Origin: Candidatus Geohabitans tengchongensis
GTDB taxonomy: Bacteria > Sysuimicrobiota > Sysuimicrobiia > Sysuimicrobiales > Humicultoraceae
Assembly: GCA_031459625.1 (NCBI GenBank)
Contig: JAVKIH010000001.1
Span: forward strand, 117,187-181,186
Direction: 5' to 3'
DNA: 64,000 nucleotides
Position 1 is the first letter of the stretch, and every line of letters begins with the position of its first letter. Below, one piece after another: positions 4,177 through 38,330 of this stretch. The position numbers were made by a program, and so were the translations under genes. The notes under the pieces are model-generated. The model ran no database searches. It had not been told where the DNA came from and saw only the letters and a program-made list of their open reading frames with translations.

Positions 4177-6363
4177 ATGAGCCTGCGCCGACGGATCATG
4201 GTGCTGGCGGCCATCGGGATGGTGGCCGCCACTGCGCCGTTGGGGCTCATGGGCGTCGGGATGCTCCGTGCCGCCACCGAGCGCGTCCTGGCCGAACGGC
4301 TCGCCCTGACGCGGGTGACGGCGGAGCACCTCGACGGGCGGCTGAGCCGGAGCCGGGACCACCTGGTGGTCCTGGCGCGCCTGGTGGCGGCCGCGCGGGC
4401 GCGCGGCCGTCTCGGGGAGATGCGCCCCGTCCTCGCGGCCATCACCCTCGAGTCCACAGTGTTCACTGGCGGAGTCCTCCTGACGGACGCCGCGGGTGAG
4501 CTGGTCTTCCAGGAACCCGGCACCGACGCTCTGGCGTTGTCCCGTCAGGACCTGCGCCCGGTGATCCACCAGACCCTGAGCACGGGGCGACCGGCCGTCA
4601 GCACGCTGCTCCGCACGGCCGGCAGCCTCCCCGTCGTCGTCATGACGGTGCCGGTTCCCGGTCCGGGACCCCGGCCGGCGGGAGTGCTGGCCGGAGTGAT
4701 CAACCTGGCGGACCCTGCCCTGCAGACGTTCGTGGAGGGCATGGCCGTCGGCACCACGGGGCACGCCGTCGTCGTGGATGCGGACGGCGTCGTCCTGATG
4801 AGCACCGACCGCAGGGAACTCTTCACGCGGGGCGAGCACCCGGAGTTCTTCATCCGGCACATGCGGGCACGGAAGGCCGCCGTGGGGCCGACGGAGGACC
4901 GCGAGGGGCACGCCATGGCCTTCGTGCCCCTGACGACGGTGCCCTGGGGCGTCGCGGCCGGCCAGGACGAAGAGGAGACCTTCGGCCCGATCCGGCGGCT
5001 GCGCGACCGCATCGTGCTCTTCGGGCTGGCGGTGCTGGCCGCCGCCCTCCTCTTCGCGTGGGTGGACACCGGGGCGGTCGCCGCCCCGCTGCGGTTGCTG
5101 CAGGAGAACGCCGAGCGCATTGCCCGCGGCGACCTGGGGCGTCCCGTGGACGTGCAGCGGGGCGACGAGATCGGCGCGCTGGCGCGGAGCTTCGAGACGA
5201 TGCGGGTCAGGCTCCTGGCCTCTCTGGAAGAGATCCAGCGCCGGGCCGTCGCCTCCCAGGCCCTCTACGAGGTGGGCACCGAGGTGTTGAGTCTGCGGGA
5301 CCGGGATGCGGTGCTGCGTTCTGTCGCCGCCCGTGCCGCCTCGCTCCTCCGGGCCGACGTCGCCGTCGTGTGCCTGTTCGCCGGGCGGGGCGACCGGGCC
5401 GTCGTGCGCGCGGCGTCCGGCCCGGCGGCCGGCGCCGTCGCCCGGGGGAGCACCTTCCCGGTGCCGGCCGGTGATCTCCAGCAGGGCTGCGTGACCTGTG
5501 CCAACATCGACGCGGCGCTCCGCTCGTCGCACCTGGCGGTGCCGCTCACCGTCGGTCGCCGCACGGTGGGTGCGCTCTGTGTCGCCTCCTCCACTCCACG
5601 GACCTTCTCCCCGGAGGACCGCGAGATCCTCAACGGCCTGGCCAACCTGGCCGCTATCGCCGTGGAGAATGCACGGCTGCAGGGGCAGGTGCGGTCACTG
5701 GCGGTCGCTGAGGAGCGCGAGCGCATCGCGCGGGAACTCCACGACAGTGTTGGCCAGGTGTTGGGCTACGTCAACACCAAGGTCCAGGCAGTGAAGCTCC
5801 TGCTGGAGGCCGGGAAACTGCCGGAGGCCCTGGCACAGCTGGGGCAGCTGGAGGACGCGGCGCGCACGAGCTACGCTGACCTGCGGGAGGCCATCCTGGG
5901 GCTGCGCACCGAGATCTCGCCCCACTGCCGGCTGGTGGACGCCTTGCGGGAGTATGTCAGCCGTTTCAGTGAGCTGAGCGGTGTGGAGACCCGGTTGCTC
6001 GTCGAGGGCGATCCTGCCGCATACCTCGTGGACCCGCCCGTCGAGCTCCACCTGATCCGCATCGTCCAGGAAGCGCTGGCCAACGTCCGCAAGCACGCGC
6101 GGGCCCGGCGCGCCTGGGTCTGGTTGGTGGAGCGGGGAGGGACCCTGATGGTGTCCGTCAGCGACGACGGCGTGGGGTTCGACCCGGCCCGCGTCGGCGG
6201 GGGGCTGTGGCCGCGGTTCGGCTTGCAGACCATGCGCGAGCGGGCGGAAGCCATCGGCGGTTCGTTCGCGGTTCGCCGCCGCGACGGCGGGGGTACGGTG
6301 GTGAGCGTCTCCCTGCCCGTGCATCGCGGGGGACCTGTGGATGCGCGTGCTGCTGGTGGATGA
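4177..6363 (+). CDS. sensor histidine kinase (TM - extracytoplasmic domain - TM - HAMP - GAF - HisKA_3 - HATPase)
   Basis: 728 aa. Two hydrophobic segments flank a ~250-aa domain. The H-box 'ERERIARELHDSVGQVL' is typical of NarX/DegS-type HisKA_3. The C-terminus is ATPase-like. Confidence 0.85.
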   Translation: MSLRRRIMVLAAIGMVAATAPLGLMGVGMLRAATERVLAERLALTRVTAEHLDGRLSRSRDHLVVLARLVAAARARGRLGEMRPVLAAITLESTVFTGGVLLTDAAGELVFQEPGTDALALSRQDLRPVIHQTLSTGRPAVSTLLRTAGSLPVVVMTVPVPGPGPRPAGVLAGVINLADPALQTFVEGMAVGTTGHAVVVDADGVVLMSTDRRELFTRGEHPEFFIRHMRARKAAVGPTEDREGHAMAFVPLTTVPWGVAAGQDEEETFGPIRRLRDRIVLFGLAVLAAALLFAWVDTGAVAAPLRLLQENAERIARGDLGRPVDVQRGDEIGALARSFETMRVRLLASLEEIQRRAVASQALYEVGTEVLSLRDRDAVLRSVAARAASLLRADVAVVCLFAGRGDRAVVRAASGPAAGAVARGSTFPVPAGDLQQGCVTCANIDAALRSSHLAVPLTVGRRTVGALCVASSTPRTFSPEDREILNGLANLAAIAVENARLQGQVRSLAVAEERERIARELHDSVGQVLGYVNTKVQAVKLLLEAGKLPEALAQLGQLEDAARTSYADLREAILGLRTEISPHCRLVDALREYVSRFSELSGVETRLLVEGDPAAYLVDPPVELHLIRIVQEALANVRKHARARRAWVWLVERGGTLMVSVSDDGVGFDPARVGGGLWPRFGLQTMRERAEAIGGSFAVRRRDGGGTVVSVSLPVHRGGPVDARAAGG

Positions 6364-7009
6364 CCATCCCCTCTTCCGCGACGGCCTCCGAAGCCTGCTC
6401 CAGGCCCGGGGCGTTCAGGTCGTCGGCGAAGCCAGCGACGGGCAGGAAGCGCTCGAGCGCGCCTGGCAGCTTCGGCCCGACGTGGTCCTGATGGACATCA
6501 CCATGCCCCGGATGGATGGCCTGGAGGCCACGCGGCTCATCAAAGCCCGGATGCCCGACGTCAAAGTCGTCATCCTGACCGTCTCTGACGAGGACCGGAT
6601 GCTCTTCGAGGCGATCAAGAGCGGGGCGCAGGGCTACCTGCTCAAGAACCTGCGGGCTGACGAGTTCTTCGACCTGCTGAGTGGGATCGAGCGAGGCGAG
6701 GCTCCCATCACCCGCCGCCTGGCCAGCCGCATCCTGGAGGAGTTCGCCCGGGAACCCGGCGGCCCGAGCCGACCCGGGACGCACGACGCGCTCACCGAAC
6801 GGGAGCGCGACGTGCTCCGCTGCGTCAGCCAGGGCGCTTCCAACCGCGAGATCGCCGTCATGCTTCGCATCTCGGAGAACACGGTCAAATACCACATGAG
6901 GAACATCCTGGAAAAGCTGCACCTGCGGAACCGCGCCGAAGTGGTGGCCTACGCGGCCCGGCGGGGATGGCTCCCGCCGGAGCGGCCCCCGGACTCCGAC
7001 CCGCCCTAA
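6341..7009 (+). CDS. response regulator, NarL/LuxR family
   Basis: Receiver domain (MRVLLVDDHPLFRDGL…DVVLMDITMP) plus a LuxR-type HTH (ERERDVLRCVSQGASNREIAVMLRISENTVKYHMRNILEKL). It overlaps the kinase gene by 23 nt. Confidence 0.9.
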   Translation: MRVLLVDDHPLFRDGLRSLLQARGVQVVGEASDGQEALERAWQLRPDVVLMDITMPRMDGLEATRLIKARMPDVKVVILTVSDEDRMLFEAIKSGAQGYLLKNLRADEFFDLLSGIERGEAPITRRLASRILEEFAREPGGPSRPGTHDALTERERDVLRCVSQGASNREIAVMLRISENTVKYHMRNILEKLHLRNRAEVVAYAARRGWLPPERPPDSDPP

Positions 7010-7045: not shown

Positions 7046-7065
7046 CCCTACCCGAACGGGTAGGG
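7046..7065. promoter_or_regulatory. perfect 9-2-9 inverted repeat CCCTACCCG-AA-CGGGTAGGG, candidate binding site for the adjacent NarL-type regulator
   Basis: Palindrome read directly from the sequence. It lies ~37 nt after the regulator stop and ~140 nt before the cupredoxin operon. The TACCC half-sites resemble NarL heptamers (TACYYMT). Confidence 0.4.
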
Positions 7066-7205
7066 AGCTTGCCCACCTGCCTGGAGGGTCTGCACCACCC
7101 GTCCCCCTGCCCACTGGTGCGTTGTGGGCGGCGACGCGACCGCCTACCGTCGAAGCGGGCCGGCGCAGGAGCGCCGTCCACGTACCTCAGCGGAGGTGAG
7201 CAACG

Positions 7206-7688
7206 ATGGGGCGTGCAGTGGGGCTCGCCACCATGGTGCTCGTCCTGGCTCTCCTCGTGGGTGCTGCCACCGCGGGCGGCGGGCGGCAGGTGACCGTCAC
7301 CATGGGCGAAGACGGCCCGCGCATGTTCTTCCGCCCGGCTCGGATCGTGCTGGCGTCGGGCGTCGAGACGGAGCTCGTCCTGGTGAACCGCGGCAGGCTG
7401 AAGCACGAGTTCATGGTGTACGCGCCGCCGAAGCCCGGCATGTCGCGGGACGCCCTGCACGAGTGGGCCGAGGACAACAACTACTTCAAGGGCCTTGAGG
7501 TCACCGTGGAGGGTAGCGGGCTGGAAGTGGAGACCAGGGAGCTGATCGAGATCGAAGTCGCCGCGGGGAAATCCGCGGAAGTGAAGTTCACGCCGAAGAA
7601 GACCGGAACGTTTGAGATGGCCTGCCTGATCAAGGATCCGGTGGACCACTACCAGGCGGGGATGCGAGGCACGCTCGTGGTGAAGTAG
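7206..7688 (+). CDS. type-1 (blue) copper protein, plastocyanin/auracyanin-like, secreted
   Basis: N-terminal signal peptide. Candidate Cu ligands are His (LKHEF) … Cys-x7-His-x4-Met (FEMACLIKDPVDHYQAGMRGTLVVK), with the characteristic C-terminal GxLVV. GGAGG RBS. Confidence 0.7.
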   Translation: MGRAVGLATMVLVLALLVGAATAGGGRQVTVTMGEDGPRMFFRPARIVLASGVETELVLVNRGRLKHEFMVYAPPKPGMSRDALHEWAEDNNYFKGLEVTVEGSGLEVETRELIEIEVAAGKSAEVKFTPKKTGTFEMACLIKDPVDHYQAGMRGTLVVK

Positions 7689-7703
7689 TGGAGGTGCGGC
7701 GCC

Positions 7704-8153
7704 ATGGGGCAGAGAGCGGTCACCGCCAGCGCGGTCTTCGTGGCGGTCCTGGCGACGGCGGCGGCCATCTATCTGGTGGATCAAGGGTACCGCCCGCCCA
7801 TCTCGGCCGCGCCGCCGGTGACGCCGGAAATCCGCCGGTTCGACCTCTACCTGCACGCCTTCGAGGTGGGGGACCGCCCCGTCTATCACTGGATGCCGCC
7901 GACGCTGGTCGTCAATGCTGGCGACCCGGTGATGCTGCGGGTGATCAACGCCGACCCTGACAGTGCCCACGGGTTCGCCCTGGGCGCCTTCAACCTCGCG
8001 GTCCCCAGCATCCCGCCCGGGCAGGCCACCACCCTCCGCTTCCGGGCCACGCGGCCCGGTGTGTACCACTTCGGCTGCGCCCTCACCGGCTGCGCTGCGG
8101 ATCACGCCAGCCAGGTGGGCCAGCTCGTCGTCCTGGGCGACACGCCGCCGTGA
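7704..8153 (+). CDS. membrane-anchored cupredoxin-domain protein with a CuA-like Cys-x4-Cys-x3-His-x2-Gln motif
   Basis: N-terminal TM anchor (AVFVAVLATAAAIYLV). Sequence runs HGFAL … YHFGCALTGCAADHASQVGQLVV. RBS GGAGGTG. The stop overlaps the next gene's start. Confidence 0.65.
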   Translation: MGQRAVTASAVFVAVLATAAAIYLVDQGYRPPISAAPPVTPEIRRFDLYLHAFEVGDRPVYHWMPPTLVVNAGDPVMLRVINADPDSAHGFALGAFNLAVPSIPPGQATTLRFRATRPGVYHFGCALTGCAADHASQVGQLVVLGDTPP

Positions 8154-9052
8154 GGGTCTCGCGACGGTCCTTCCTCAAGCTTGCCGCCGCCGCCGGGATG
8201 GTCGCGGCATGGGCGGTGGGCGAGCCGGCGGCTCCGGTGCGCCGCCCGTGGGTGGGGGCGGGCCGCGGCGTGCCGGCCCTCGCCCGCAGCACGGGCCAGG
8301 CCGGTCGGCCACGTCGCTGGGTCATGGTGGTGGACCTGGCCAAGTGTGACGGCTGCCAGGAGTGCACCCGGGCGTGCACCGCCATGCACCGCGTCCCGCC
8401 AGGACAGGAGTGGATTCGGGTCTACGAGATGCGGGACGAGGCCACCGGCCTGGCCTACTGGCTGCCGCGTCCCTGCATGCAGTGCGACAACCCGCCGTGC
8501 GTGAAGGTCTGCCCGGTCAGCGCCACGTGGAAGCGCGACGACGGCATCGTCATGCAGGACACCAGCCGGTGCATCGGCTGTCGGTACTGCATCGCCGCGT
8601 GTCCCTACCAGGCCCGGGCCTTCAACTGGCTCGAGCCGGCCGCCACCCCCGAGCGGACCGGGGAGGCGTACGACCCCGAGTGGAACCGCGTGCATTTCAA
8701 GGGCACCACGGAGAAGTGCATCTTCTGCCCCGCCCTGATCAAGGAGGGGAAGCTTCCCGCCTGCGTGGCAGCCTGTCCCATGGGTGCCATCTATTTCGGC
8801 GACCGTGAGGAAGACGCCGTGACCAACTCCCAGGGCGAGACGGTCCGCTTCTCGGCGCTGGTGACCGAGCAGGCCGGCTACCGCCTGTTGGAGGAGCTGG
8901 GCACCGAGCCGCGCGTCTACTACCTGCCGCCGCGCCAGCGCCTCTACCCCGCGCCGCCGGCGGAGCCGGCGGCGGCACCTGTGCCGGCGGCGGCGCCGCG
9001 ACGGACCGTTCCGCCGGACCGGCCTGGCGCCGTCGGAGGTGCGGTGCCATGA
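8150..9052 (+). CDS. Tat-exported 4Fe-4S ferredoxin-type subunit, NrfC/PsrB/ActB2-like
   Basis: Twin-arginine motif RRSFLKLAAAAG. Multiple Cys clusters (CDGCQECTRAC…CMQCDNPPCVKVCP…CIGCRYCIAACP…CIFCP…CVAACP). GTG start overlaps the upstream stop. Confidence 0.85.
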   Translation: MRVSRRSFLKLAAAAGMVAAWAVGEPAAPVRRPWVGAGRGVPALARSTGQAGRPRRWVMVVDLAKCDGCQECTRACTAMHRVPPGQEWIRVYEMRDEATGLAYWLPRPCMQCDNPPCVKVCPVSATWKRDDGIVMQDTSRCIGCRYCIAACPYQARAFNWLEPAATPERTGEAYDPEWNRVHFKGTTEKCIFCPALIKEGKLPACVAACPMGAIYFGDREEDAVTNSQGETVRFSALVTEQAGYRLLEELGTEPRVYYLPPRQRLYPAPPAEPAAAPVPAAAPRRTVPPDRPGAVGGAVP

Positions 9053-10617
9053 GCAGGCCGCCTCACCACGGGTTCTCGGACCGCGAGGAGCGCCTGCTCG
9101 CCTCGCTGTCGGCGGGCGGAACGGGCTTCTCCGCCTTGATCGGGGGGCTGCTGGCGGTGGTCGTCTGGGGCCTGGTGGCGTATGCCACGCAGCTGCGCCA
9201 CGGCCTGGGCGTCACCGGTCTGCGCGACCACGTCCTGTGGGGCGTCTACATCGCCAACTTCGTCTTCTTCATCGGCGTCAGCCACGTGGGCGCCCTGATG
9301 TCGGCCATCCTGCGTCTGACGGGCGCCGAGTGGCGGCGCCCCATCACCCGCATGGCGGAGGCCATCACCTTTGCCTCCCTCCTGATGGGAGCCCTGATGC
9401 CGGTGGTGGACATGGGGCGACCAGACCGGTTGCTGACCCTCATCGGGCATGGCCGACTGCAGTCCCCGATCCTGTGGGACATCCTGTCCATCACGACCTA
9501 CCTGACCGGCAGTACGCTCTTCCTCTACGTGCCCATGATCCCCGACCTCGCCCTCCTGCGCCACCGCTACGCCGGGGGCCCCGCCTGGCGCCGGCGGCTG
9601 TACACCCTCCTGAGCCTCGGGTGGCAGGACACCCCCGCCCAGCGCCACGCCCTGGAGACCATCATGCGGGTGCTGGCGGTGATGATCATCCCGATCGCCG
9701 TCTCCGTGCACACCGTCGTCTCCTGGATCTTCGGCATGACGCTGCGCGCAGGCTGGAACAGCACCATCTTCGGTCCCTACTTCGTCTCGGGGGCCCTGTT
9801 CAGCGGGGCCGCGGCGGTCGTGACAGCCATGGCGACGTTTCGGTGGGCCTACCACCTGGAGGACTACATCACCGAGGCGCACTTCCGGCGCATGGGCTAC
9901 TTGCTCATCGCGCTGGGGCTGGCGTACGGCTACTTCACGTTCGCGGAGTACCTGACGCCCGCCTACAAGATGGCGACCGCCGAGCGGGGGTACCTCACGG
10001 CCGTCTTCAGCGGTCCCTTGGCGCGGCTGTTCTGGTTCACGCAGCTGACTGGCATCTTGCTCCCGGTGCTCCTCCTCACCCTGCCGCGGATCGCCTGGGT
10101 GCCTCGGCTGCACAGGGTACCGCTGTTGCGACCGCGGCCGGCGCTGGCGGCAGCCGTCACGTACGCCGTCGCCACCGTGGTCCTGTCCGCCGCCGGCCCG
10201 CGCATGACGATGGCCCGCGTGAACCTGACCGCGCTGATCCCACCGTGGGCGCTGCCGGCGCTGGTCCTCTGGCTCTTCCTGGCCTGGCTCCCCGTCTTCC
10301 ACGTCCGGCCCATCGCGGCCGCCGTGGTCGCTTCGCTGCTGGTGAACGTCGGCGCATGGCTCAAGCGCTACCTCATCATCGTCCCGACGCTGCTCAACCC
10401 CTTCCTGCCCATCCAGCGTGCACCGACTGGGTGGGCCGCCTACCAGCCCACCTGGGTGGAGTGGTCGATCACGGCCGGCGCGCTGGCGGGTTTCGCGCTC
10501 ATCTACATCGGGTTCAGCAAGGTGTTCCCCATCATCCCCATCTGGGAGACGCGCCAGGAGCCCGCGCCGCTCCGCCCGGCCGGCCAGGAGGGGGTCCCCG
10601 GTGTCCCGGCGCTTTAG
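9049..10617 (+). CDS. NrfD/PsrC-family polytopic membrane quinol-interacting subunit
   Basis: 522-aa highly hydrophobic protein with ~10 predicted TM segments. NrfD-like N-terminal region (GLRDHVLWGVYIANFVFFIGVSHVGALMSAILRLTGAEWRRPITRMAEA). ATGA overlap with the upstream gene. Confidence 0.85.
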   Translation: MSRPPHHGFSDREERLLASLSAGGTGFSALIGGLLAVVVWGLVAYATQLRHGLGVTGLRDHVLWGVYIANFVFFIGVSHVGALMSAILRLTGAEWRRPITRMAEAITFASLLMGALMPVVDMGRPDRLLTLIGHGRLQSPILWDILSITTYLTGSTLFLYVPMIPDLALLRHRYAGGPAWRRRLYTLLSLGWQDTPAQRHALETIMRVLAVMIIPIAVSVHTVVSWIFGMTLRAGWNSTIFGPYFVSGALFSGAAAVVTAMATFRWAYHLEDYITEAHFRRMGYLLIALGLAYGYFTFAEYLTPAYKMATAERGYLTAVFSGPLARLFWFTQLTGILLPVLLLTLPRIAWVPRLHRVPLLRPRPALAAAVTYAVATVVLSAAGPRMTMARVNLTALIPPWALPALVLWLFLAWLPVFHVRPIAAAVVASLLVNVGAWLKRYLIIVPTLLNPFLPIQRAPTGWAAYQPTWVEWSITAGALAGFALIYIGFSKVFPIIPIWETRQEPAPLRPAGQEGVPGVPAL

Positions 10618-11254
10618 CGCTAGCGCGCTGATCGCCGGCCCGGGGGGGGTCTGGCTGGGCCTGGCGGTGGCGGCGCTGTTCGCCTGCCCGGCGTGGGCCG
10701 CCGAGCCGGCCCGCATCACCCTGGAGGTGGCGGGCCTCGAGGACGCGCGGTGGATCATGGCCGTGGTCACCGACGCGACAGGCGCGCCGGTGCCCGAGGC
10801 GCTCATCGTGTTCAAGGCCCGCACGACCTTCGGCTGGCTCCTCCTGGAGGAGCGATCGACGGACGCCGCCGGCCGGGCGCGGATGGGCCTTCCCGCCGGC
10901 GTGCGGGCGACGGCGATCCGAGCGGAGAGCGCGGACATCGGGCAGGTGCACGCGACCGTGCGCGTGGGTGGACCGTCCCCGGCCACTCCGCGGGTGCGAC
11001 CGGACCGCGACGTGCTCAGGGCCCTGAGCCCGCAGCCGGGCGTGATCAGTCCCTATCCCGTGCCGGCGCAGGTGGCGCTGCTCGCGGCGGTCCTGGGCGG
11101 GATCTGGGCGACGTATGGGTATGTGGCCTGGCTCCTGTGGCGCATCCGCACGTCCGGTCGGTCGCAGGGCGTGAGGGCGCCGGCGTCCCCGGAGCGGGAA
11201 CCGCTCACTGCTCGGCTTGGGTGGCCTCCAGGAAGGCGTGCAGGGCTGTCGTGA
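10601..11254 (+). CDS. hypothetical secreted/membrane-anchored beta-sandwich (carboxypeptidase-regulatory-like) protein
   Basis: GTG start overlaps the NrfD-like stop. N-terminal signal peptide. The pattern 'ITLEVAGLEDARWIMAVVTDATGAPVPEALIVF…TDAAGRARMGLPAGV' resembles CarboxypepD_reg/prealbumin-like folds. C-terminal TM helix. Confidence 0.5.
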   Translation: MSRRFSASALIAGPGGVWLGLAVAALFACPAWAAEPARITLEVAGLEDARWIMAVVTDATGAPVPEALIVFKARTTFGWLLLEERSTDAAGRARMGLPAGVRATAIRAESADIGQVHATVRVGGPSPATPRVRPDRDVLRALSPQPGVISPYPVPAQVALLAAVLGGIWATYGYVAWLLWRIRTSGRSQGVRAPASPEREPLTARLGWPPGRRAGLS

Positions 11255-12052: not shown

Positions 12053-12619
12053 GTGCGGATCCTGGCCTGTGCCGACCTCCACGGACGGCCGGCTCGCGTG
12101 GCGCGGGTCCGGGCGCTGGTCGCCGAGCACCGCCCCGATGTCCTCTGTCTGGCGGGAGACCTGACGCACGCTGGCAGCGGCTCCGGGGCCCTCCAGCTGC
12201 TGGAGACCCTGGACGTGCCCATCGTGGCCGTGTCGGGGAACATGGACGACGCCCACACCGTGGAGGCGATGCGGCGGCGCGGGGTCCTCCTCGGCGACTC
12301 CCCCCGGGTCATCGGTGGGGTGACCTTCGCCGGCCCCGAGGTGGCCGGGCCCTGCGACGTGCTGGTGACGCACGAGCCTCCCGCCGGCGTGCTGGACCGC
12401 GTGGGCACCGGCCGGCACATCGGCTCCCCGGCGGTGCGCGCGCTGATCGAGCGCTGGCAACCGCGGCTGCACGTCTGCGGCCACGTCCACGAGTCGCCGG
12501 GCGTGGTCCGCCTGGGCGCCACGACGGTCGTGAACTGCACGCTGGGCCGCGACGAGATCGCCGGCGCCTTGGCCGTCCTCGAGGGCGAAGCGCTGGACGT
12601 GCGCCTCCTCCCCCCGTAA
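12053..12619 (+). CDS. metallophosphoesterase (calcineurin-like)
   Basis: Motifs ACADLHG…GDLTH…GNMD…VTHEPP…CGHVHE. GTG start. Confidence 0.8.
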   Translation: MRILACADLHGRPARVARVRALVAEHRPDVLCLAGDLTHAGSGSGALQLLETLDVPIVAVSGNMDDAHTVEAMRRRGVLLGDSPRVIGGVTFAGPEVAGPCDVLVTHEPPAGVLDRVGTGRHIGSPAVRALIERWQPRLHVCGHVHESPGVVRLGATTVVNCTLGRDEIAGALAVLEGEALDVRLLPP

Positions 12620-12789
12620 CTACTCCGCTCCCCATCGGTGGGTGGGCCCGGTCGTCGGACTGCAGGCCCGCCGCCCACCGCCCTGGTGCGGCCGTTCGTG
12701 CTCCCTTCCGGCTAGTTGTGCGTCACAGTGAGACCGCGGAGAGCGGGCGGTGCAAGCATGGCCTCACACCGACGAGAGGTCAACCAGCC

Positions 12790-13503
12790 GTGGGAGAGCC
12801 GGGGAGGGACGCGCGGAGCGGCGCGGGCCAACAGACGCTCCCGGCGGCGGAGACGCTGCTGCCGCTCGTCCGGGGGATTGCCCGGGGCGTGGCGCAGGCG
12901 TTGCCGCCGTCGGTGGAGGTGGACGACCTCGTACACGACGGGGTCGTGGGGTTGCTCGAGGCGATCGGGCGGTTCGACCCGTCGCGCGGCGTGGACTTCA
13001 GCACCTACGCCACCTACCGCATTCGGGGAGCCATCCTCGACGGCCTGCGCGGGCGCGACCCGCTCCCCCGCAGCCTGCGCCGCCAGCTGGGCGCGGCGCC
13101 CCGCGCATCGGCCCCGCTGGCCGTCGTGCCGCTGAAGGTCGTCCCACTGGATGCGGCCCTCGTCCTCGCCGGCGACGACGGGCAGCCCGAGGAGGCCCTG
13201 CTGGCCGAGGAGTTGCGGGCCGAGGTGGAGCGAGCCCTGCGCGCCCTCCCCCCGCGCCACCGGCGGCTCCTGGCCCTGCGCTTCGGCCGGGGGCTGCGCC
13301 TGCGGGAGGTGGCCGCCTGCTTCGGGATCTCCATGACGCGCGCAGCGGAGCTCCAGGAGCGGGCCATCCGCCGGCTGCGCACAGCCCTGGCGGTGGAACA
13401 CCCCGACGGGCTCTCCCCGAACGGCAAGCCGCGGCGGCGCCGTCCTGCAGCCAACGCCGCTCCGAGCGTCCCGCCGGGCGAGCCAGCCACGGTTTCCAGG
13501 TGA
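12790..13503 (+). CDS. RNA polymerase sigma factor, sigma-28 (FliA/WhiG/SigD) family
   Basis: Region 2 (DDLVHDGVVGLLEAIGRFDPSRGVDFSTYATYRIRGAILDGLRGRDPLPRSLRR) is near-identical in pattern to FliA. Region 4 HTH is LALRFGRGLRLREVAACFGISMTRAAELQERAIRRLR. Start is inferred (GTG 12790; GTG 12718 is possible). Confidence 0.75.
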   Translation: MGEPGRDARSGAGQQTLPAAETLLPLVRGIARGVAQALPPSVEVDDLVHDGVVGLLEAIGRFDPSRGVDFSTYATYRIRGAILDGLRGRDPLPRSLRRQLGAAPRASAPLAVVPLKVVPLDAALVLAGDDGQPEEALLAEELRAEVERALRALPPRHRRLLALRFGRGLRLREVAACFGISMTRAAELQERAIRRLRTALAVEHPDGLSPNGKPRRRRPAANAAPSVPPGEPATVSR

Positions 13504-13519
13504 CCGCCTGGAGGGCATA

Positions 13520-14323
13520 GTGGCCCGCCAGGGTTGGGGAGGGAGCATGGCCGGGCGCGAGGGAGGCGTGTGGTCTGCTCCGGATGCCGTGGCCGCGGTG
13601 GAGCAGATCCACGCCCACTTTCTCTGCAACGCCCTCACCGCGGTCCAGCTCTGGGTGGGGACACACCCCCGCCTCGCCGAGCAGCTCATCGGGTTGCTGG
13701 CCGGATACGTGCAGGCCCGGCTCACCCCGGCCACGGTCGTCCCGCTGCGGCACGAGCTCGAGGTCGTGCTCACCTACCTGGCCCTCGAGCGGGTGCGACT
13801 GGGACCACGTCTGCGCACCCGGCTGGCCATCGCCCCCGAGACGCTGACGGCCGCCATCCCGCCGCTCGTCCTCCAGCCGCTGGTCGAGAACGCGGTGATC
13901 CACGGGGTGAGCGCCCGGCCGCTGGGCGGCACGGTGGAGGTGCACGCCTGCCGGCGGCGAGATCGGCTGCTCCTCCTGGTGGCCGACGACGGGCTCCCGG
14001 TGGCCGCCGACGGGAGGGTCGCCGACGGGCATCGAGCGCAGCGGGCGTGGCTCGGCGGAGGGCGATCACGACCCGGCCCGGGGCTGGCGCTGCGCAACGT
14101 GCGCCGCCGGCTGCACCTGGCGTACGGTCGGCAGGGAGCGGTGCGCGTGGTGCGCCGCCTCGGACGCGGGTGGCTGGCGGTGGCGAGCCTGCCCTTTGAG
14201 GAGGCCGGAGAGACGGAGGCGACCGCAGAGACGGTGGGACCGCCGGCGTGGCCGGAGGAGCGCGGGCAGCGTGCGGAGCAGGGGCACGGAGGGGCGGATG
14301 CGGGCCCTCGTGGTGGACGATGA
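13520..14323 (+). CDS. LytS/YehU-type histidine kinase core (His_kinase + HATPase_c), cytoplasmic, no membrane sensor domain
   Basis: H-box 'QIHAHFLCNALTAV' and ATPase motifs (LVLQPLVENAVIHG…). No hydrophobic segments. ~267 aa. Confidence 0.7.
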   Translation: MARQGWGGSMAGREGGVWSAPDAVAAVEQIHAHFLCNALTAVQLWVGTHPRLAEQLIGLLAGYVQARLTPATVVPLRHELEVVLTYLALERVRLGPRLRTRLAIAPETLTAAIPPLVLQPLVENAVIHGVSARPLGGTVEVHACRRRDRLLLLVADDGLPVAADGRVADGHRAQRAWLGGGRSRPGPGLALRNVRRRLHLAYGRQGAVRVVRRLGRGWLAVASLPFEEAGETEATAETVGPPAWPEERGQRAEQGHGGADAGPRGGR

Positions 14324-15008
14324 GGCAGCGGGGCGCCGGCTGCTCGGCCGGCTGCTCCGCGATCTGGGGCACGCGGTCGTGGCCGAGGCCAGCACCGGCG
14401 CGGAGGCACTGGCCGTGCTGGCGCACCGGACGGTCGATGCCGCCTTCCTCGACATCCGGCTCCCGGACCTGGACGGGCTGGCGGTGGGGGATCGGTGCCG
14501 GCGGGCCGGGATCCCGGTCGTCTTCGTCACCGGGTTTCCGGACTACGCGCTCCCCGCCTACGACGTGGCGGCGGTCGACTACCTGGTGAAACCACCGACC
14601 CTCGACCGGCTGGGGCGGGCCCTGGCTCGCCTGCGCGCGGCCGGGGAACAGACAGCGTCCCAGGGCGGGGCCCCGGACCGGCTGTGCCTGCGCGTGGATG
14701 GCGAGCACCGCCTCATCGCGGTGCGCCACGTGCTGGCGGTGCGGGCCGACGGTGCCGTGGTCACCCTGTGGCTTGAGGAGGGGTCGCTGCGGGCCCGGGT
14801 CCCGCTCGGGCGCCTGGAGCAGCTGCTCGTGCCCCACGGCTTCTTCCGCTGCCACCGCGCCTACCTGGTGAACCTGCGCCGGGTGCGGCGGATCGTCGCC
14901 TGGTCGCGCGAGGCCCACAGCCTCCTGCTCGACGACGCACAGGAAACCCTCATCCCCCTGGCCAAATCCCGCAGGCGGGCGCTGCGCGCGTTGCTCCTCT
15001 GGCCTTAG
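14298..15008 (+). CDS. response regulator, LytTR family
   Basis: Receiver domain (MRALVVDDEAAGRRLL…DAAFLDIRLPDLDGL) plus a LytTR DNA-binding domain (…RLIAVRHVLAVRADGAVVTLWLEEGSLRARVPLGRLEQLL…FFRCHRAYLVNLRRV). Overlaps the kinase gene. Confidence 0.85.
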   Translation: MRALVVDDEAAGRRLLGRLLRDLGHAVVAEASTGAEALAVLAHRTVDAAFLDIRLPDLDGLAVGDRCRRAGIPVVFVTGFPDYALPAYDVAAVDYLVKPPTLDRLGRALARLRAAGEQTASQGGAPDRLCLRVDGEHRLIAVRHVLAVRADGAVVTLWLEEGSLRARVPLGRLEQLLVPHGFFRCHRAYLVNLRRVRRIVAWSREAHSLLLDDAQETLIPLAKSRRRALRALLLWP

Positions 15009-21741: not shown

Positions 21742-23166
21742 TCACTCGTACAGGAGGTAGCGGCTCCGCAGCGCCTCGAACCGGCGCAGCGCCGGTTGCC
21801 AGCGCGCCACGATGGCCTCCGCGGGCAGCCCGCGCGTGAGGTCCACCCGCACCTGCTTGGTCCCCCAGACCACGTCGAAGAGGGCCCGGCCGCGGCGGGG
21901 CAGCCGGAAGCGCAGCTGCCCCGGGTGGAGGTCGCGGATCTCCGCCAGCACGTAGACGGTCGTGGTGGCCGGGCGGAAGGCGGCGCGGTCCGTCACGTGC
22001 AGCCGCACTCCGCGCCACACCCGTCCCGTGCGCGGGTGGGGGACGGCAGAGGGGGAGAAGCGCACCCCCGGCAGCCCGCGGCGGTTGAGGCGGGCGGCCA
22101 GGCGCTCGCCGTCCATCCAGGGCGCCAGCACCACCTGGAAGCGCGAGGTGGTGGCCACCCCGTTCCACAGGTTCGTCCCGTCGAGCGGGCCGGTGGCGGC
22201 GTAGTAGAAGGGGGCGTCGGCGTGGGTGAGGCCCGGGGAGGGGTTCACCCAGGGCAGCCCCGTCTCGGTCCAGGGCATGCTCCGGCTCCACCCCTGCATG
22301 GGCACGACGGTGAGCTGGGCGCCGATGCCGAAGGCGTCGTTGTACAGGCGGGCGAGTTCCCCGAGCGTCATCCCGTGCACCAGCGGGATCGGGTAGAGCC
22401 CGATGAAGGAGCGGAAGGCGGGCTCGAGCACCGGGCCGTCGACGACGGTGCCGCCGAGCGGGTTGGGCCGGTCGAGGACGACGACGGGCTTGCCGGCCTC
22501 GCGGGCGGCCGCCATCACCAGCGCCATCGTGGAGGCGTAGGTGTACGGGCGCGTACCGGCGTCCTGCAGGTCGACCACGAGGACGTCCACGCGCGCCAGC
22601 ATCTGCCGCGTCGGCCGGAAGGCGCCGCCGTAGAGGCTGTACACCGGCGTCCGCGAGGGGAGGATCGCCCCCGGTGCGCCGCCGATGTGGGTGCTGGCCA
22701 CGGGGACGCCCGCGCCCGCACTGCCGTCGAACCCGTGCTCGGGGGCGAAGAGCGCGGTGAGGCGCACCCCGGGCGTGCGGGCCAGCGCCGCCGCGGTGAG
22801 GTCGCCCGCGGCGGTCGTGCCGGCCAGGTGGGTGACCAGGCCGACGCGCTTGCCAGCGAGCGGTGCCGGGTCGGTGAGCAGGGTGTCGGCCCCGAGACGG
22901 ACCTCGGGGCGGAGGTCCGACCCGCCGGCCCACAGCGCCGGGCCCCACGACCAGAGGACCAGGAGGACGACGACCGCGACGAGACGCAAGACGCGAGGGC
23001 TCCGAGACCGGTCACGCGCCGGACCGTGGACCGGTGGCGCGTTGGTCGGTAAGATTCGGTTGATCGCTGACGGGTTCCTGCCCAGGCCCGCCGCCGCGTA
23101 GACGTCTCGTGCAGCCCTGAGGAGGTCTCCTGTGGTGACGCTCCCTCCCGAGGCCTTCGAGGCCAA
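21742..23166 (-). CDS. namZ: DUF1343 protein, exo-beta-N-acetylmuramidase NamZ-like
   Basis: Conserved DUF1343 blocks (VGLVTHLAGT…DVLVVDLQDAGTRPYTYASTMALVMAAA…VLDRPNPLGG). N-terminal TM/signal. True start uncertain (ATG 23166 or TTG ~22989). Confidence 0.75.
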   Translation of the reverse strand: MASKASGGSVTTGDLLRAARDVYAAAGLGRNPSAINRILPTNAPPVHGPARDRSRSPRVLRLVAVVVLLVLWSWGPALWAGGSDLRPEVRLGADTLLTDPAPLAGKRVGLVTHLAGTTAAGDLTAAALARTPGVRLTALFAPEHGFDGSAGAGVPVASTHIGGAPGAILPSRTPVYSLYGGAFRPTRQMLARVDVLVVDLQDAGTRPYTYASTMALVMAAAREAGKPVVVLDRPNPLGGTVVDGPVLEPAFRSFIGLYPIPLVHGMTLGELARLYNDAFGIGAQLTVVPMQGWSRSMPWTETGLPWVNPSPGLTHADAPFYYAATGPLDGTNLWNGVATTSRFQVVLAPWMDGERLAARLNRRGLPGVRFSPSAVPHPRTGRVWRGVRLHVTDRAAFRPATTTVYVLAEIRDLHPGQLRFRLPRRGRALFDVVWGTKQVRVDLTRGLPAEAIVARWQPALRRFEALRSRYLLYE

Positions 23167-23638
23167 CGCGCAGGTGGACCGCCTGCGCCAGGCGGCGTTG
23201 GTGGTGCGGCGCGTCGCTGGCGAACTGCGCTACCACCCCGCCACCGGACTGGCCCGTCGGCCGGAGCCGCCCTTTGAGGAGGCGCTGCGCACGCTGCACG
23301 AGGTCCTGGGGGTGGTGCGCCGCCTGGCCGACCGCTTCGACGCGGAGGAGGCCGCCATCCGCGGTGCCGAGCCGACCGCGCTGGAGGAGGTGCGCGCGGG
23401 GCACCAGCGCGTGCGCGAGCTGGCCGGAGCCCTGGCGGCGGCGCTGCGCGTGCTGGAGGAGGTGCTGGCCCATCCCGAGCGCGCGCCGCTCGATGCGCCC
23501 TACGGGCTGGGGGCGCCGCGCCGTCCCCATCCGGGCGCGCAGGCCACCTGGGTGGCGGAGCGCGCGGAGAGCCTGGCCCGGGAGCTGGCGTACGTGACGG
23601 CGGTGAAGTCTTCAGCCATTCGCGCAGCGAATGGCTGA
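23132..23638 (+). CDS. hypothetical protein (helical)
   Basis: 168-aa ORF with a non-repetitive, helix-like composition. No recognisable motif. Overlaps the 5' end of the ATG-start model of namZ. Confidence 0.3.
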   Translation: MVTLPPEAFEANAQVDRLRQAALVVRRVAGELRYHPATGLARRPEPPFEEALRTLHEVLGVVRRLADRFDAEEAAIRGAEPTALEEVRAGHQRVRELAGALAAALRVLEEVLAHPERAPLDAPYGLGAPRRPHPGAQATWVAERAESLARELAYVTAVKSSAIRAANG

Positions 23639-32665: not shown

Positions 32666-33547
32666 ATGACCGCCCGCCCGGCCCTCGCCGCCCGGACCCG
32701 CGCCGCCATCTTGGGCGCGGCGCGGCGGCTCTTCGCGCGCCGGGGCTTCGCCGGCACGGCCGTCCGGGAGATCGCCGTGGCGGCGGGCGTCTCGAAGGCG
32801 CTCATCTACCACCACTTCCGCGACAAGGACCGCCTCTTCTCCCTGCTACTGGCGCAGGCGGCGGGGCTGGTGCGCCGGGAAGTCGTGGCGCTCCCGCCGG
32901 AGGAGCCGCCGGTGCGGCAGATGGCCCGGCTGATCCTCCAGTACCTGCGCTTCGCGGAATCCCACCCGGACCTGCTGCGCCTCCTGCTGCGGGAGGAGGC
33001 GCACGGCGAGGCCGGGCGGGCTCCAGCCCTGCTGGCGCGGCTGCGCCGGGAGGAGCAGGCGGCGTTCGAGGCGGTGATCCGGCGCGGCGTCGCCGCGGGG
33101 GCCTTCAAGGAGGTCGACCCCGCCGTCTCTGCCTCGGCGGTGGCGAGCGCCGTCCGGCTGCTGGCGGCGGCGTTCGCCGGGGCGCCGCACCTCACGGCGG
33201 ACGGCCGGCGTCCCCCCGCCGTGGAGGTGGCGGCCAATGCGCTCGACATCCTCCTCAACGGCCTGGCCCGCCGGCCGCACCCGCGGCGCGAGGTCGAGAC
33301 CCTGCTGACCGGTATGGCGGGCCCCGCCCATACCCCGCCGCGGACCTCGCGCCCGAGCGGCGCTCGCGAGGCGAGCAGCGCAGCCACGGCGCGGGCAGCA
33401 CGGGGGCGCGGGAGCGGGAGGCCGCGGCGGGGGGGGCGCAGGATCGGTGGGACCGGCGGAACAGGAAGCGGGCACGGTGAACGGGCGTTCACCTCACTTG
33501 AACGTCTGAGGGGTCGGGCGCACCGCCCGCGGGAGGCATCGGCGTGA
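32666..33547 (+). CDS. TetR/AcrR-family transcriptional regulator
   Basis: N-terminal HTH (ILGAARRLFARRGFAGTAVREIAVAAGVSKALIYHHFRDK). The C-terminal ~80 aa is low-complexity run-on before the first stop. Confidence 0.8.
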   Translation: MTARPALAARTRAAILGAARRLFARRGFAGTAVREIAVAAGVSKALIYHHFRDKDRLFSLLLAQAAGLVRREVVALPPEEPPVRQMARLILQYLRFAESHPDLLRLLLREEAHGEAGRAPALLARLRREEQAAFEAVIRRGVAAGAFKEVDPAVSASAVASAVRLLAAAFAGAPHLTADGRRPPAVEVAANALDILLNGLARRPHPRREVETLLTGMAGPAHTPPRTSRPSGAREASSAATARAARGRGSGRPRRGGRRIGGTGGTGSGHGERAFTSLERLRGRAHRPREASA

Positions 33548-38100: not shown

Positions 38101-38330
38101 TGGCCGTGCTGGGCGGCATGTTCACCTCCACCGCCCTCACCCTGGTGGTGATCCCGACGGTCTACACGCTGCTGGACGACCTGCTGGCACGGGCGCGTGA
38201 GGTGCGCCTGCGGGGAGTCCGCGTGCGCCAGCCGCTCCCGGTCACCGGCGGGGCGGGGGCCGCAGGCGAGGCCCGTGGCCGCCAGGCAGACCACCCCGGC
38301 GGCCCCACCCCCCCGGGCGCGCACGCCTGA
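35136..38330 (+). CDS. RND efflux transporter permease (AcrB/HAE1-like)
   Basis: 1064 aa with 12 TM segments and two large periplasmic loops. N-terminus MSLAALAVRRQVLVLMVIAGLLVLGLIAYGRLPVELFPNVQFPFVSV. ATGA overlap with the adaptor gene. Confidence 0.9.
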   Translation: MSLAALAVRRQVLVLMVIAGLLVLGLIAYGRLPVELFPNVQFPFVSVVTAYPGAGPEEVERLITRPLEEQLSSLTNVRTIRSISAEGASTVGIEFALGTDIDAAAADVRQRVDLVKAGFPRDAQDPIVQKFDFSALPVVLLGVSGPSGLGLRELAEEVIKPRLERVPGVAAVTVSGGREREIEVAVAQDRLRAEGFTIDQVEEALRLANLNIPAGRLRAGDEEFLVRVVGQFGRVEAIGDLVLQRGDGYTIPLRAVAEVRETFREPDQFTRLNGRDSVGLSVQKQAGANTVEVAEGVRRVVRDLRGILPPGTAIAVARDDSLFIRDAIADVQGNLLLGAALATLVVLLFLHDLRSTVIIALALPAAIVATYIPMFFFGFSLNTLSLLALAIAIGLMVDNAIVVNENISRHLALEPTPALAAERGAREVELAVWASNLANVAVFIPIAFTRGLVGQFFRQFGLTVVFANLFSILIGFTLTPMLSARWLRPRRPEDRPGRFATWWDRGFGRLQDRYAGLLRWALGRRWTVVGGAALLFAASLALVASPLIGKEFFPTGDYGQFQVSVTMPPGTALRQTDRAVRAVEAVLRDLPEVEAVFALVGGAEDPFLGTTSGSQRGQIFVNLVPRERRTRSVDEVMAEVRARTRRIAGAEVHVAAQGGAGPGTAPVQVELSGPDVAVLQRLAAQVERIVARTPGTTNVDTNLDAGTSEVQVRLDQARLAELGLTTARVGTAVRQALAGVAASRYRGVGQEVDIVVRAGAADRAAVERLADLHVATVGGRPVRLGDVATLEVRRGPAVIERKDRQRLAVVSASLLGRPLSAVVNDIQRALPAVALPPGYTVRFGGEAEFQRETFGDMLFALGLGSLLVYMTMAAQFESLVQPFVIMFSLPLASIGTFLLLLLTRTTVSLISLLGIVMLAGIVVNNAILLVEFITQRRREGAPRQEAILAAARTRLRPILMTALVSIMGGLPVALGLGASGAEWRRPLGVAVLGGMFTSTALTLVVIPTVYTLLDDLLARAREVRLRGVRVRQPLPVTGGAGAAGEARGRQADHPGGPTPPGAHA

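Follow-up and report, generated by a model that had tools for sequence, protein, structure and literature searches.

A conserved cupredoxin-NrfC-NrfD operon of Sysuimicrobiota as a candidate quinol:cupredoxin oxidoreductase

An operon that joins genes for two copper proteins to those of a NrfC-NrfD pair, and that encodes no haem protein, raises the question of where the electrons of the quinol pool would go. Such an operon lies at positions 7206 to 11254 of the window, that is the 64,000 nucleotides (64 kb) of contig JAVKIH010000001.1 from Candidatus Geohabitans tengchongensis whose numbering is used throughout. A first interpretation made from the letters of this DNA (the sequence-only reading) had proposed a minimal, cytochrome-free route from quinol directly to copper proteins. 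By following it up in silico, we found that the conserved gene order and copper ligands, the exchange of carriers on a related core and the adjacency of oxidase genes in some relatives make it reasonably probable that the operon encodes a membrane-bound quinol:cupredoxin oxidoreductase, which would be a haem-free functional analogue of complex III or of alternative complex III (ACIII). To our knowledge, all characterised quinol:acceptor oxidoreductases that feed terminal oxidases use haem, be they bc1/b6f, ACIII or the NrfCD/SirCD/Cbc type.

Gene content and conservation of the operon

The window has a base composition of about 74% G+C, and seven co-directional genes on the + strand, with a strong third-position GC bias, occupy the region from 4.1 to 11.3 kb. 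Five of them make up the operon:

7206-7688, + strand: Cup1 gene, 160 amino acids (aa), predicted secreted type-1 (blue) cupredoxin (Pfam PF13473/PF00127)
7704-8153, + strand: Cup2 gene, 149 aa, cupredoxin predicted to be anchored by an N-terminal transmembrane helix (PF13473)
8150-9052, + strand: NrfC-like gene, 300 aa, ferredoxin predicted to be exported by the twin-arginine (Tat) pathway (Fer4_11)
9049-10617, + strand: NrfD-like gene, 522 aa, NrfD-family, ActC-related integral membrane protein and putative quinol-binding subunit (PF03916)
10601-11254, + strand: P5 gene, 217 aa, signal peptide, Ig-like domain and C-terminal transmembrane helix

Three of the junctions overlap, by 4 nucleotides (nt) for Cup2/NrfC, 4 nt (ATGA) for NrfC/NrfD and 17 nt for NrfD/P5, and are translationally coupled. 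The four consecutive genes with overlapping stop and start codons that had been described at first are therefore correct for these three junctions but not for Cup1 and Cup2, which are separated by 15 nt with a GGAGGTG ribosome-binding site inside. Downstream, a convergent α/β-hydrolase gene forms the border of the operon.

By scanning 185,579 species-representative genomes with the NrfD protein, we obtained 410 related stretches, and the best 79 loci were analysed (designated here by L and a number, L086-L089 being from metagenome assemblies). Gene calls in the high-GC relative loci were guided by third-position GC. The closest loci are 61-88% identical and bear the labels 'Bacterium HR32', 'Armatimonadetes bacterium CSP1-3', 'Candidatus Thermofontivivens primus' and 'Candidatus Calidihabitans tengchongensis', which correspond to the uncultured candidate phylum CSP1-3, since renamed Sysuimicrobiota (PMC11604079). 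Every CSP1-3 locus with enough flank, about 15 in number (window, L001, L003-L009, L011, L013, L015, L027, L086-L089), has the Cup2, NrfC and NrfD genes in this order. Cup1 stands nearly always directly upstream, and the three genes never share a transcription unit with COX1. Moreover, 13 public contigs carry an identical NrfD protein, and the gene calls agree at the six places shown (five metagenome-assembled genomes (MAGs) from hot springs, GCA_0314…, and one Logan read-run assembly), and the locus is therefore no assembly artefact. In L080 (9003-10004; GCA_031459055.1), which carries the identical NrfD, the NrfC gene was called as two open reading frames (ORFs) of 167 and 132 aa and Cup1 as 151 aa; the split is probably a frameshift or an assembly error of that MAG rather than biology.

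In line with the claim that no molybdopterin or haem catalytic subunit is present, we found no CxxCH motif in the five operon proteins nor in any coding-like ORF of the window. Also, no homologue of a molybdopterin subunit, ActA, ActB1, ActD, ActE or ActF was detected in the window by tblastn with ActA, B1, D, E and F from L047, L058, L061 and L066, the sole cross-match being a weak ActF alignment onto the NrfD gene itself. The rest of the window, searched for genes of a molybdoenzyme, a cytochrome c, an oxidase, NirK or NosZ, had none of these but only housekeeping and transport genes.

Copper proteins and the NrfC-NrfD-P5 core

Cup1 scored above the cut-offs of two Pfam cupredoxin families (PF13473, 35.5 bits for a cut-off of 27; PF00127, 24.4 bits for a cut-off of 21.2). 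It has a signal peptide, a single Cys and the ligand pattern KH67EF…C140-x7-H148-x4-M153, as anticipated for a secreted blue-copper protein with His…Cys-x7-His-x4-Met ligands. The loss of ligands in orthologues had been set beforehand as a test of the whole proposal, and His67, Cys140 and His148 proved invariant in 15 orthologues, with Met (10) or Gln (5) at the axial position. By its sequence, Cup1 thus has the cupredoxin fold and the conserved His…Cys…His…Met/Gln ligands that define type-1 copper. Auracyanin, plastocyanin, halocyanin and sulfocyanin carriers have the same His/Cys/His/Met ligands and signal peptide, and the presumed role of Cup1, a shuttle from a quinol-oxidising complex to terminal enzymes, would be theirs as well. 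In contrast to auracyanin and CopI, however, Cup1 shows marginal sequence similarity to either and has an insertion of about 30 residues past the first His ligand: auracyanin B (E 0.6) and the cupredoxin 4hcf were weak matches, and the best NCBIfam match, the copper-resistance cuproprotein CopI (NF051440), reached 48.2 bits for a cut-off of 280 with an alignment confined to the C-terminal ligand loop.

Cup2 was assigned to PF13473 with 29.8 bits; a Pro-rich linker joins its single N-terminal transmembrane helix to a cupredoxin domain with two cysteines. The membrane-anchored cupredoxin proposed at first was thereby confirmed in its layout, but not as a plain blue-copper protein, since its metal loop, H89-G-F … G-C125-x4-C130-x3-H134-x2-Q137-x-G-Q140, holds a CuA-like two-Cys motif that had gone unnoticed. 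H89, C125, C130, H134, Q137 and Q140 are invariant in 13 sequences and in the orthologues from 13 loci. Like the CuA domains of Thermus thermophilus ba3 oxidase (CbaB) and N2O reductase, Cup2 has the HGF histidine and the loop with two Cys and one His, its two Cys and two His being placed as in these domains, and it aligns to the CuA domains of NosZ and CoxII; it also shares the single N-terminal helix of ba3 subunit II. Unlike the canonical CuA motif (H…C-x3-C-x3-H-x2-M), the Cup2 loop has one more residue between the Cys and an invariant Gln for the axial Met. Cup2 also departs from the CuA subunits of oxidases in that it is never encoded with COX1 in one unit and is translationally coupled to an iron-sulfur (FeS) protein. 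The best NCBIfam match was the CuA domain of NosZ (N2O reductase), and the Protein Data Bank (PDB) matches were the type-1 domain of NirK, ba3 CoxII and NosZ. An AlphaFold2 model of Cup2 (mean confidence score pLDDT 82.5) consists of a helix plus a β-sandwich, for which Foldseek returned nitrosocyanin, the NosZ CuA domain and NirK as best matches; the model thus supports a cupredoxin fold without discriminating a type-1 from a CuA site.

A Cup2 profile, run exhaustively with HMMER against 1.84 billion cluster representatives, matched 9 proteins below 1e-30 and 149 below 1e-10. Among the best 150 relatives, 87 have the canonical CuA motif, 13 the Cup2 motif, 9 a long-loop variant and 3 the motif C-x4-C-x3-H-x2-M, and a separate homologue search with Cup2 found 12 close relatives. 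Judged from its sequence relatives, Cup2 is a rare offshoot of the CuA-type cupredoxins, and its centre is probably binuclear and CuA-like. No curated Pfam or NCBIfam family covering the Cup2 variant or P5 was found.

The NrfC-like protein begins with MRVSRRSFLK, in which RRSFLK is a twin-arginine motif, belongs to Fer4_11 (E 4e-21) and has exactly 16 Cys in four cluster motifs, in keeping with the Tat-signal poly-ferredoxin described at first; it would bind four [4Fe-4S] clusters. Its best PDB matches were PsrB (3e-32), ArrB and the C-terminal part of ActB (1e-26), and its NCBIfam scores stayed below the cut-offs of DsrO (187 bits for 200), QrcC (155 bits for 400) and cyt_nit_nrfC (134.8 bits for 377.6). 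At the position of the ActB sequence CIGTRYC, the 3-Cys signature of a [3Fe-4S] cluster, the protein reads CIGCRYC; the Thr variant was found in 25/25 ACIII loci and the Cys variant in all loci of the cupredoxin clade.

The 522-aa NrfD-like protein was confirmed as a member of the NrfD family (PF03916, E 6e-25, 89 bits) with about 12 predicted transmembrane helices and no Cys. NCBIfam gave 103.8 bits to DsrP for a cut-off of 350, and the NrfD equivalog of that collection did not match. In contrast, a phmmer search of the PDB placed ActC first (6btm_C, 2.2e-55; 6f0k_C, 1.4e-53; also 8k9e_C and 6lod_C), with ActF at 1.5e-4 and no match to Thermus PsrC. The residues named for R. marinus ActC are His139, Ser164, Asp169, Asp253 and Arg395 (PMC8076601). 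Three of these have identical counterparts in the NrfD-like protein that are invariant in its clade, namely Ser139 for Ser164, Asp144 for Asp169 and Arg440 for the mid-membrane gate Arg395, whereas His139 and Asp253 are replaced by Asp121 and Ile227 in the pairwise alignment. This distinction is systematic: His plus Asp were found in 27/27 canonical ActC, and Asp plus a hydrophobic residue in 14/14 members of the window clade as well as in nearly all other modules with a small NrfC and an NrfD. Asp at the His139 position is the residue named for DsrP, QrcD and W. succinogenes PsrC (PMC8076601). The NrfD-like protein also carries a 65-aa insertion (residues 354-420) that adds two predicted helices not found in ActC.

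In a neighbour-joining tree of the homologues from the 79 loci, canonical ActC (from loci with ActA, ActB1/B2, ActF and genes that we interpret as ActD and ActE) formed one clade and the window group fell in its sister clade, which also includes modules with large Tat-dependent subunits (the second operon of L004, L035 and L042). The sequence-only reading was to be given up if NrfD clustered with ActC and had an actB/actA partner elsewhere; ActC is indeed the nearest structure, yet NrfD lies in a sister clade with different signature residues, and no distant actB/actA partner is needed because NrfD has its own adjacent FeS partner. Canonical ACIII was ruled out by the missing signature residues, the missing [3Fe-4S] motif and the lack of other Act subunits, and the DsrOP, Qrc and Nrf equivalogs because every score fell under its cut-off. 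On these sequence criteria the module is a distinct family, of which the ActB2/ActC pair is the nearest characterised relative.

The fifth protein was expected to be an anchored β-sandwich protein after NrfD, and P5 indeed comprises a signal peptide, an Ig-like β-sandwich (weak Pfam matches to Ig-like/CarboxypepD_reg-like domains), a conserved segment RPGRxVLRALSPQPGxISPYP and a C-terminal helix GGIWATYGY, with no cofactor motif. Orthologues 40-51% identical to it stand directly after NrfD in L004, L005, L008, L009, L011 and L086; in all, P5 was detected in the window, L001, L004, L005, L008, L009, L011 and L086/L087, after NrfD wherever a downstream flank exists. A P5 profile gave only generic Ig-like matches in the PDB and NCBIfam, with no NCBIfam family and no chain of a solved ACIII entry.

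The main comparative clue comes from the distant NrfCD relatives (48-60% NrfD identity), found in Anaerolineae and other Chloroflexota, Bacteroidales and others. The gene after their NrfD encodes an Ig plus transmembrane (Ig-TM) module with an extra N-terminal redox domain, which is a monohaem cytochrome c in L019, L028, L030, L034, L036, L043 and L063 and cupredoxin-like in L014, L016 and L017. By hhalign, the P5 orthologues are homologous to the cytochrome c fusions (97.7%, E 2e-12), residues 25-183 of P5 covering the C-terminal two-thirds of the cytochrome c-Ig-TM proteins that stand beside NrfCD in Chloroflexota and Bacteroidales. In L026 (1478-3427) and L033 (2497-5076) the Ig-TM module is instead fused to the C-terminus of NrfD, and a cupredoxin with a canonical CuA motif is encoded directly upstream of NrfC; in the archaeal MAG L024 an Ig-TM module lies upstream and a type-1 cupredoxin downstream. 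Thus, one NrfC-NrfD-Ig-TM core pairs with either cytochrome c or cupredoxin as redox domain. Such an exchange is what is expected of a quinol:carrier oxidoreductase whose carrier has been swapped, and the fused monohaem cytochrome c or cupredoxin-like domains point to small periplasmic carriers as partners. P5 itself is likely a third core subunit that would act as a docking platform.

Proposed electron route and its alternatives

Possible acceptors were found beside the operon in several relatives. In L009 and L011, the genes of COX2, COX1, a small protein and COX3 (Pfam) stand immediately upstream of the cupredoxin genes; in L086/L087 a COX2 gene lies a few genes upstream, and in the Bacteroidales relatives L030 and L043 COX genes lie downstream of the module. 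The COX2 proteins of L009 and L086 carry the canonical CuA motif but lack a haem c domain (no CxxCH), and therefore need an external one-electron donor; Cup2 does not share the CuA motif of these true COX2 proteins of its lineage.

The phylum paper provides further context. The KEGG orthology (KO) tables in parts of its supplement list coxABC (1-3 copies), ccoN (cbb3-type) and two petB-like cytochrome b genes per genome, and no Rieske, c1 or qcrC subunit is listed among the MAGs of that KO table in file 2 part 29 (PMC11604079 supplement). As coxABC is listed without Rieske, c1 and qcrC, these tables leave an apparent gap between quinol and oxidase, although passages of the paper term the aerobic chain complete (PMC11604079). 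Both nirK and nosZ are reported in several CSP1-3 families (PMC11604079). A cytochrome b gene occurs in L088 (3616-4674), 2 kb upstream of the sensor kinase gene found beside the operon there, with no Rieske gene beside it. The term 'cytochrome-free' used at first fits the operon, which has no CxxCH, but not the organism, because L003 contains a gene that we read by eye as CcmE-like and ccoN appears in the CSP1-3 tables.

From the gene content and order, the motifs, the homology, the conservation and the fusion and neighbourhood patterns described above, we infer cofactors, direction of electron flow, partners, coupling and regulation as follows. (Mena)quinol would be oxidised at a periplasm-facing site of the ActC-related NrfD, around Asp121, Ser139 and Asp144, and its electrons would travel along the four [4Fe-4S] clusters in Tat-exported NrfC to the membrane-tethered Cup2, probably with a binuclear CuA-like centre, and then to the soluble type-1 Cup1, the order Cup2 before Cup1 being tentative. 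Cup1 would diffuse to copper-accepting terminal enzymes, most plausibly an aa3-type oxidase with a subunit II without a cytochrome c domain, while NirK or NosZ may be other acceptors where members of the phylum have them. P5 would be a single-pass subunit with its Ig domain on the periplasmic face, where it would probably serve to position the carriers. Turnover may be coupled to proton translocation, with which the ActC-like helices and the mid-membrane Arg440 would be compatible, and expression is probably under the control of the adjacent GAF kinase and NarL-type regulator through a conserved palindrome (see below). The topology is coherent: NrfC carries a Tat signal, each cupredoxin and P5 a signal or an anchor, and the quinol-site residues of NrfD are on the P-side as in ActC. 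Stand-alone NrfCD-type quinol dehydrogenases that feed periplasmic carriers are known (SirCD; PMC11434368).

Several known systems come close to the module. ACIII (ActABCDEF; 6F0K, 6BTM, 6LOD, 8K9E) reduces auracyanin or cytochrome c/caa3 oxidase, and that of Chloroflexus and Roseiflexus is described as ending on the cupredoxin auracyanin (PMC10873879). Like ACIII, the operon has a membrane subunit most similar to ActC, with Ser164, Asp169 and Arg395 in common, and a periplasmic Tat-exported FeS subunit; its presumed activity, the oxidation of quinol and the reduction of a periplasmic carrier, is likewise that of ACIII. ACIII genes also often stand beside a haem-copper oxidase, as the operon does in some loci. 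Unlike ACIII, it lacks the pentahaem ActA, the monohaem ActE and the molybdopterin-like domain ActB1 as well as ActD and ActF, and copper proteins and an Ig-TM subunit take the place of the haem subunits, in addition to the differences in cluster motif, residues, helices and clade given above. NrfCD-type modules oxidise menaquinol and pass the electrons to periplasmic carriers (PMC11434368; PMC8076601). E. coli NrfCD (feeding NrfB/NrfA), Shewanella SirCD and Geobacter CbcSTU have the same Tat four-cluster ferredoxin and cofactor-less NrfD-family protein and no A subunit; their acceptors, however, are multihaem c-type cytochromes rather than cupredoxins, and the operon departs from them by the sub-threshold NrfC equivalog score, an NrfD that resembles ActC rather than E. 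coli NrfD, and the extra P5. DsrO/DsrP (of DsrMKJOP) and QrcC/QrcD (of QrcABCD) gave the best NCBIfam matches, and DsrP and QrcD share the Asp at the position of ActC His139. Yet the scores were under the cut-offs, no DsrMKJ or QrcAB genes lie nearby, the neighbours being cupredoxins and a two-component system, and organism and context are aerobic or denitrifying and not sulfate-reducing.

A quinol dehydrogenase of NrfCD type without an A subunit is thus already known, as is an ACIII that reduces auracyanin. What is new are the copper-only partners, the CuA-like protein with C-x4-C-x3-H-x2-Q and the Ig-TM subunit, for which we found no description in the literature searched. That literature comprised full-text searches for NrfD with cupredoxin or blue copper and for ACIII with cupredoxin, a review of the NrfD family and the CSP1-3 phylum paper, in none of which such a module is described. 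The supplements of the phylum paper contain no rows for K00184, K00185 or nrfD (PMC11604079).

Several points weigh against a quinol:cupredoxin oxidoreductase. The proposal is drawn from sequence for every step of the route. An oxidase is encoded nearby in only some loci, and none is in the window; in addition, CSP1-3 genomes have two cytochrome-b-like genes, and another quinol oxidase route may exist. The NrfC clusters are all of the 4-Cys type, usually of low potential, whereas ACIII has a higher-potential [3Fe-4S] cluster beside the quinol site, and the equivalent of ActC Asp253 is hydrophobic in the NrfD-like protein. Cup2 may bind one copper ion or two. Finally, some Cup1 orthologues have Met/His-rich loops like those of copper-resistance proteins, and genes for ZIP, CopD-like and heavy-metal-associated (HMA) proteins stand in the neighbourhood in some relatives, which could indicate a function in the handling of copper.

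Could the same complex run backwards? With the proton-motive force as its driver, a cupredoxin:quinone oxidoreductase would lift electrons of a high-potential periplasmic donor, gathered by the cupredoxins, uphill to quinone, the donor being nitrite through an enzyme like nitrite oxidoreductase (NXR), Fe(II) or reduced copper proteins. NrfD-type modules do run both ways, QrcCD reducing menaquinone and PsrABC consuming membrane potential (PMC8076601), and Arg440 and the ActC-like helices are as compatible with proton coupling in this direction. Also, some CSP1-3 families have periplasmic NXR-like enzymes and are predicted chemoautotrophs (PMC11604079). The operon, however, adjoins oxidase genes and no lithotrophic donor enzyme, no donor enzyme is encoded within the window, and a downhill flow from quinol to copper would be thermodynamically simpler. 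We therefore regard the reverse direction as unlikely.

A role in copper homeostasis seems improbable as well. Here the handling of Cu(I)/Cu(II) in the periplasm would fall to Cup1 and Cup2, NrfCD would tie a redox step (oxidative detoxification, or reduction for uptake) to the quinone pool, and the two-component system would sense copper. CopI is the best NCBIfam match of Cup1, but its score is far under the cut-off; likewise, the Cup1 insertion is Met/His-rich in the orthologues of L013, L018, L022 and L025 but not in the Cup1 of the window. The ZIP genes (L006, L007, L086), the CopD-like gene (L003) and the HMA lipoprotein genes (Bacteroidales) are in keeping with copper handling, yet such neighbours may instead serve to supply up to four cupredoxins with copper. 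Related modules put a monohaem cytochrome c, which has no copper-handling role, at the position of the cupredoxin, and the classical type-1 and CuA-type ligand sets are electron-transfer sites.

It is very unlikely that the NrfC-NrfD pair belongs, as membrane module, to a conventional three-subunit molybdoenzyme or a multihaem enzyme that has its catalytic gene at another locus, with the cupredoxins accessory or unrelated (e.g. Cup2 as subunit II of an unlinked haem-copper oxidase). The closeness of the NrfC sequence to PsrB and ArrB, the large Tat-dependent subunits of some modules in the sister clade and the one-helix-plus-cupredoxin architecture that Cup2 shares with ba3 subunit II would suit this reading. 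But NrfC has its own twin-arginine signal, whereas B subunits of Psr/Dms-type enzymes have none and cross the membrane together with the A subunit; the series Cup2-NrfC-NrfD-P5 is kept with overlapping frames in all loci and never shares a unit with COX1; the window holds no candidate catalytic gene; and the true COX2 of the lineage carry a CuA motif unlike that of Cup2. Taken together, the cytochrome c/cupredoxin exchange and the adjacency of oxidase genes weigh against both the copper-handling and the larger-enzyme explanations, and the forward quinol:cupredoxin oxidoreductase is the reading that we retain.

A bolder version of it is possible but rather doubtful. The complex would then be the main or only link from quinol to the aa3-type oxidase in CSP1-3/Sysuimicrobiota, a true haem-free 'copper complex III' in which an FeS wire delivers electrons to a tethered binuclear CuA-like centre of a new loop type (C-x4-C-x3-H-x2-Q, with up to three such centres in relatives) and on to a soluble blue copper protein, possibly with ActC-like proton translocation. 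It would also belong to a wider undescribed family of three-subunit NrfC-NrfD-(cytochrome c/cupredoxin)-Ig-TM quinol:carrier oxidoreductases in Chloroflexota, Bacteroidales and several archaeal MAGs.

If a quinol:cupredoxin oxidoreductase is indeed encoded, the passage of electrons from FeS clusters straight to copper centres would be a new solution of respiratory wiring and would fill the apparent electron-transport gap in a phylum widespread in soil and hot springs. It would also offer bioinorganic study a natural FeS-to-CuA-like electron-transfer pair and a new variant of the CuA-type loop. The swap of cytochrome c and cupredoxin on one core across phyla makes the hypothesis directly testable and shows how metal availability may shape respiratory chains.

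Promoter elements and neighbouring genes

The two remaining genes of the co-directional series and the elements of the promoter region are the following:

4177-6363, + strand: sensor histidine kinase gene (Pfam: periplasmic dCache-like, HAMP, GAF, HisKA_3, HATPase_c)
6341-7009, + strand: NarL/LuxR-type response regulator gene (Pfam: Response_reg 2.5e-31, GerE helix-turn-helix 7.5e-21)
7046-7065, no strand: perfect 9-2-9 palindrome CCCTACCCG-AA-CGGGTAGGG, candidate operator for the NarL-type regulator; generalised form CCTACCCG-NN-CGGGTAGG, candidate site for NarL-type regulators
7119-7126, + strand: second promoter block GYGTTGTG, GCGTTGTG in the window (alignment A5, invariant G78, G82, T83, G85, T86)

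The kinase and regulator genes share 23 nt, and most loci have such a pair adjoining the operon. Orthologues of the kinase stand beside the operon in L001, L003, L004, L006, L007, L008, L013, L086 and L088, and regulators 72-85% identical adjoin it in L001, L003, L006, L007, L008 and L013. The upstream GAF kinase, NarL-type regulator and 9-2-9 palindrome pointed out at first are thus all present, and the palindrome is conserved across relatives in the manner of an operator. Its core, CTACCC-N4-GGGTAG, occurs once in the 64 kb for 0.08 expected; a single copy of the palindrome closely precedes the first cupredoxin gene in L001, L003, L007, L008, L009, L027, L088 and L089, versions with one mismatch occur in L011 and L013, and the palindrome forms a conserved block of promoter alignment A5. 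About 45 nt downstream of it lies the second block, of the form GACTACCC-N6-8-GYGTTGTG (A5: L003, L006-L009, L011, L013, L027, L088), in which GACTACCC, present in most relatives, is similar to one palindrome half; the window and L001 have a degenerate version of it. For a dimeric NarL/LuxR-type regulator, a 20-bp palindrome would be the type of site expected. We propose that the adjacent regulator binds the palindrome, and the kinase is likely a dedicated sensor of the operon. Scans of the operon for sigma-70 promoters and intrinsic terminators, which are uninformative at 70% GC, returned nothing, internal terminators included.

Many relatives encode two additional membrane-anchored cupredoxins ahead of the operon, with the loop C-x10-C-x3-H-x2-M (e.g. 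YRCYLPHDPATGTCAPDHDRM). They mostly form tandem pairs before Cup1, which gives four copper proteins per operon in many relatives, and this family appears to be uncharacterised. They were located at:

L006, 4122-5084
L007, 4027-5100
L009, 4112-5112
L011, 4155-~5100
L086, 6110-7042
L088, 8517-9472
L003, 10519-11491
L014, 9824-10273
L020, ~9812-10262
L023, 2611-3180

Metal-handling genes recur in the same regions. A ZIP-family transporter gene lies between the regulator and the cupredoxins in L007 (3119-4000, - strand), L006 (3100-3951, - strand) and L086 (5118-5867, - strand), a CopD-like protein is encoded in L003 (11509-12015), and in Bacteroidales a lipoprotein with an HMA motif (GMTCxxC) is encoded directly upstream of NrfC (L030, 5603-5986; L043, 5577-5984; L046, 5535-5885). 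These neighbours may supply copper or hint at a role in copper homeostasis.

Some loci depart from the common arrangement. In L005 ('Ca. Thermofontivivens primus'; 3-1617), the genes ahead of Cup1 code for a NapH-like polyferredoxin membrane protein (Fer4_5) and for an anchored cupredoxin of 135 aa that has the canonical CuA motif (C-x3-C-x3-H-x2-M), and the kinase and regulator genes are inserted between Cup1 and Cup2. A paralogous NrfC-NrfD pair (about 54% NrfD identity) stands beside the operon in L007 (9110-11471), L027 (1-2335), L021 and L012; it has no cupredoxin or P5 gene and is followed by genes for secreted proteins of about 476-513 aa. Downstream of the operon in L004 (9437-14221), a three-gene cluster encodes an 859-aa protein with a Tat signal, a 245-aa four-cluster ferredoxin without signal and a 482-aa NrfD-family protein. 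By its sequences this cluster looks like a conventional Psr/Ttr-like molybdoenzyme, whose B subunit, unlike that of the module studied here, has no Tat signal.

The rest of the window (12053-15008, 21742-23229, 33502-38330, 51194-52327 and 59520-61133) contains ordinary genes and no respiratory ones. Among them are genes for a metallophosphoesterase, a sigma-70 factor with a LytTR-type two-component system, ABC transporters, an RND efflux pump (HlyD and AcrB) and peptidoglycan recycling (NamZ, a SIS-domain protein and AnmK).

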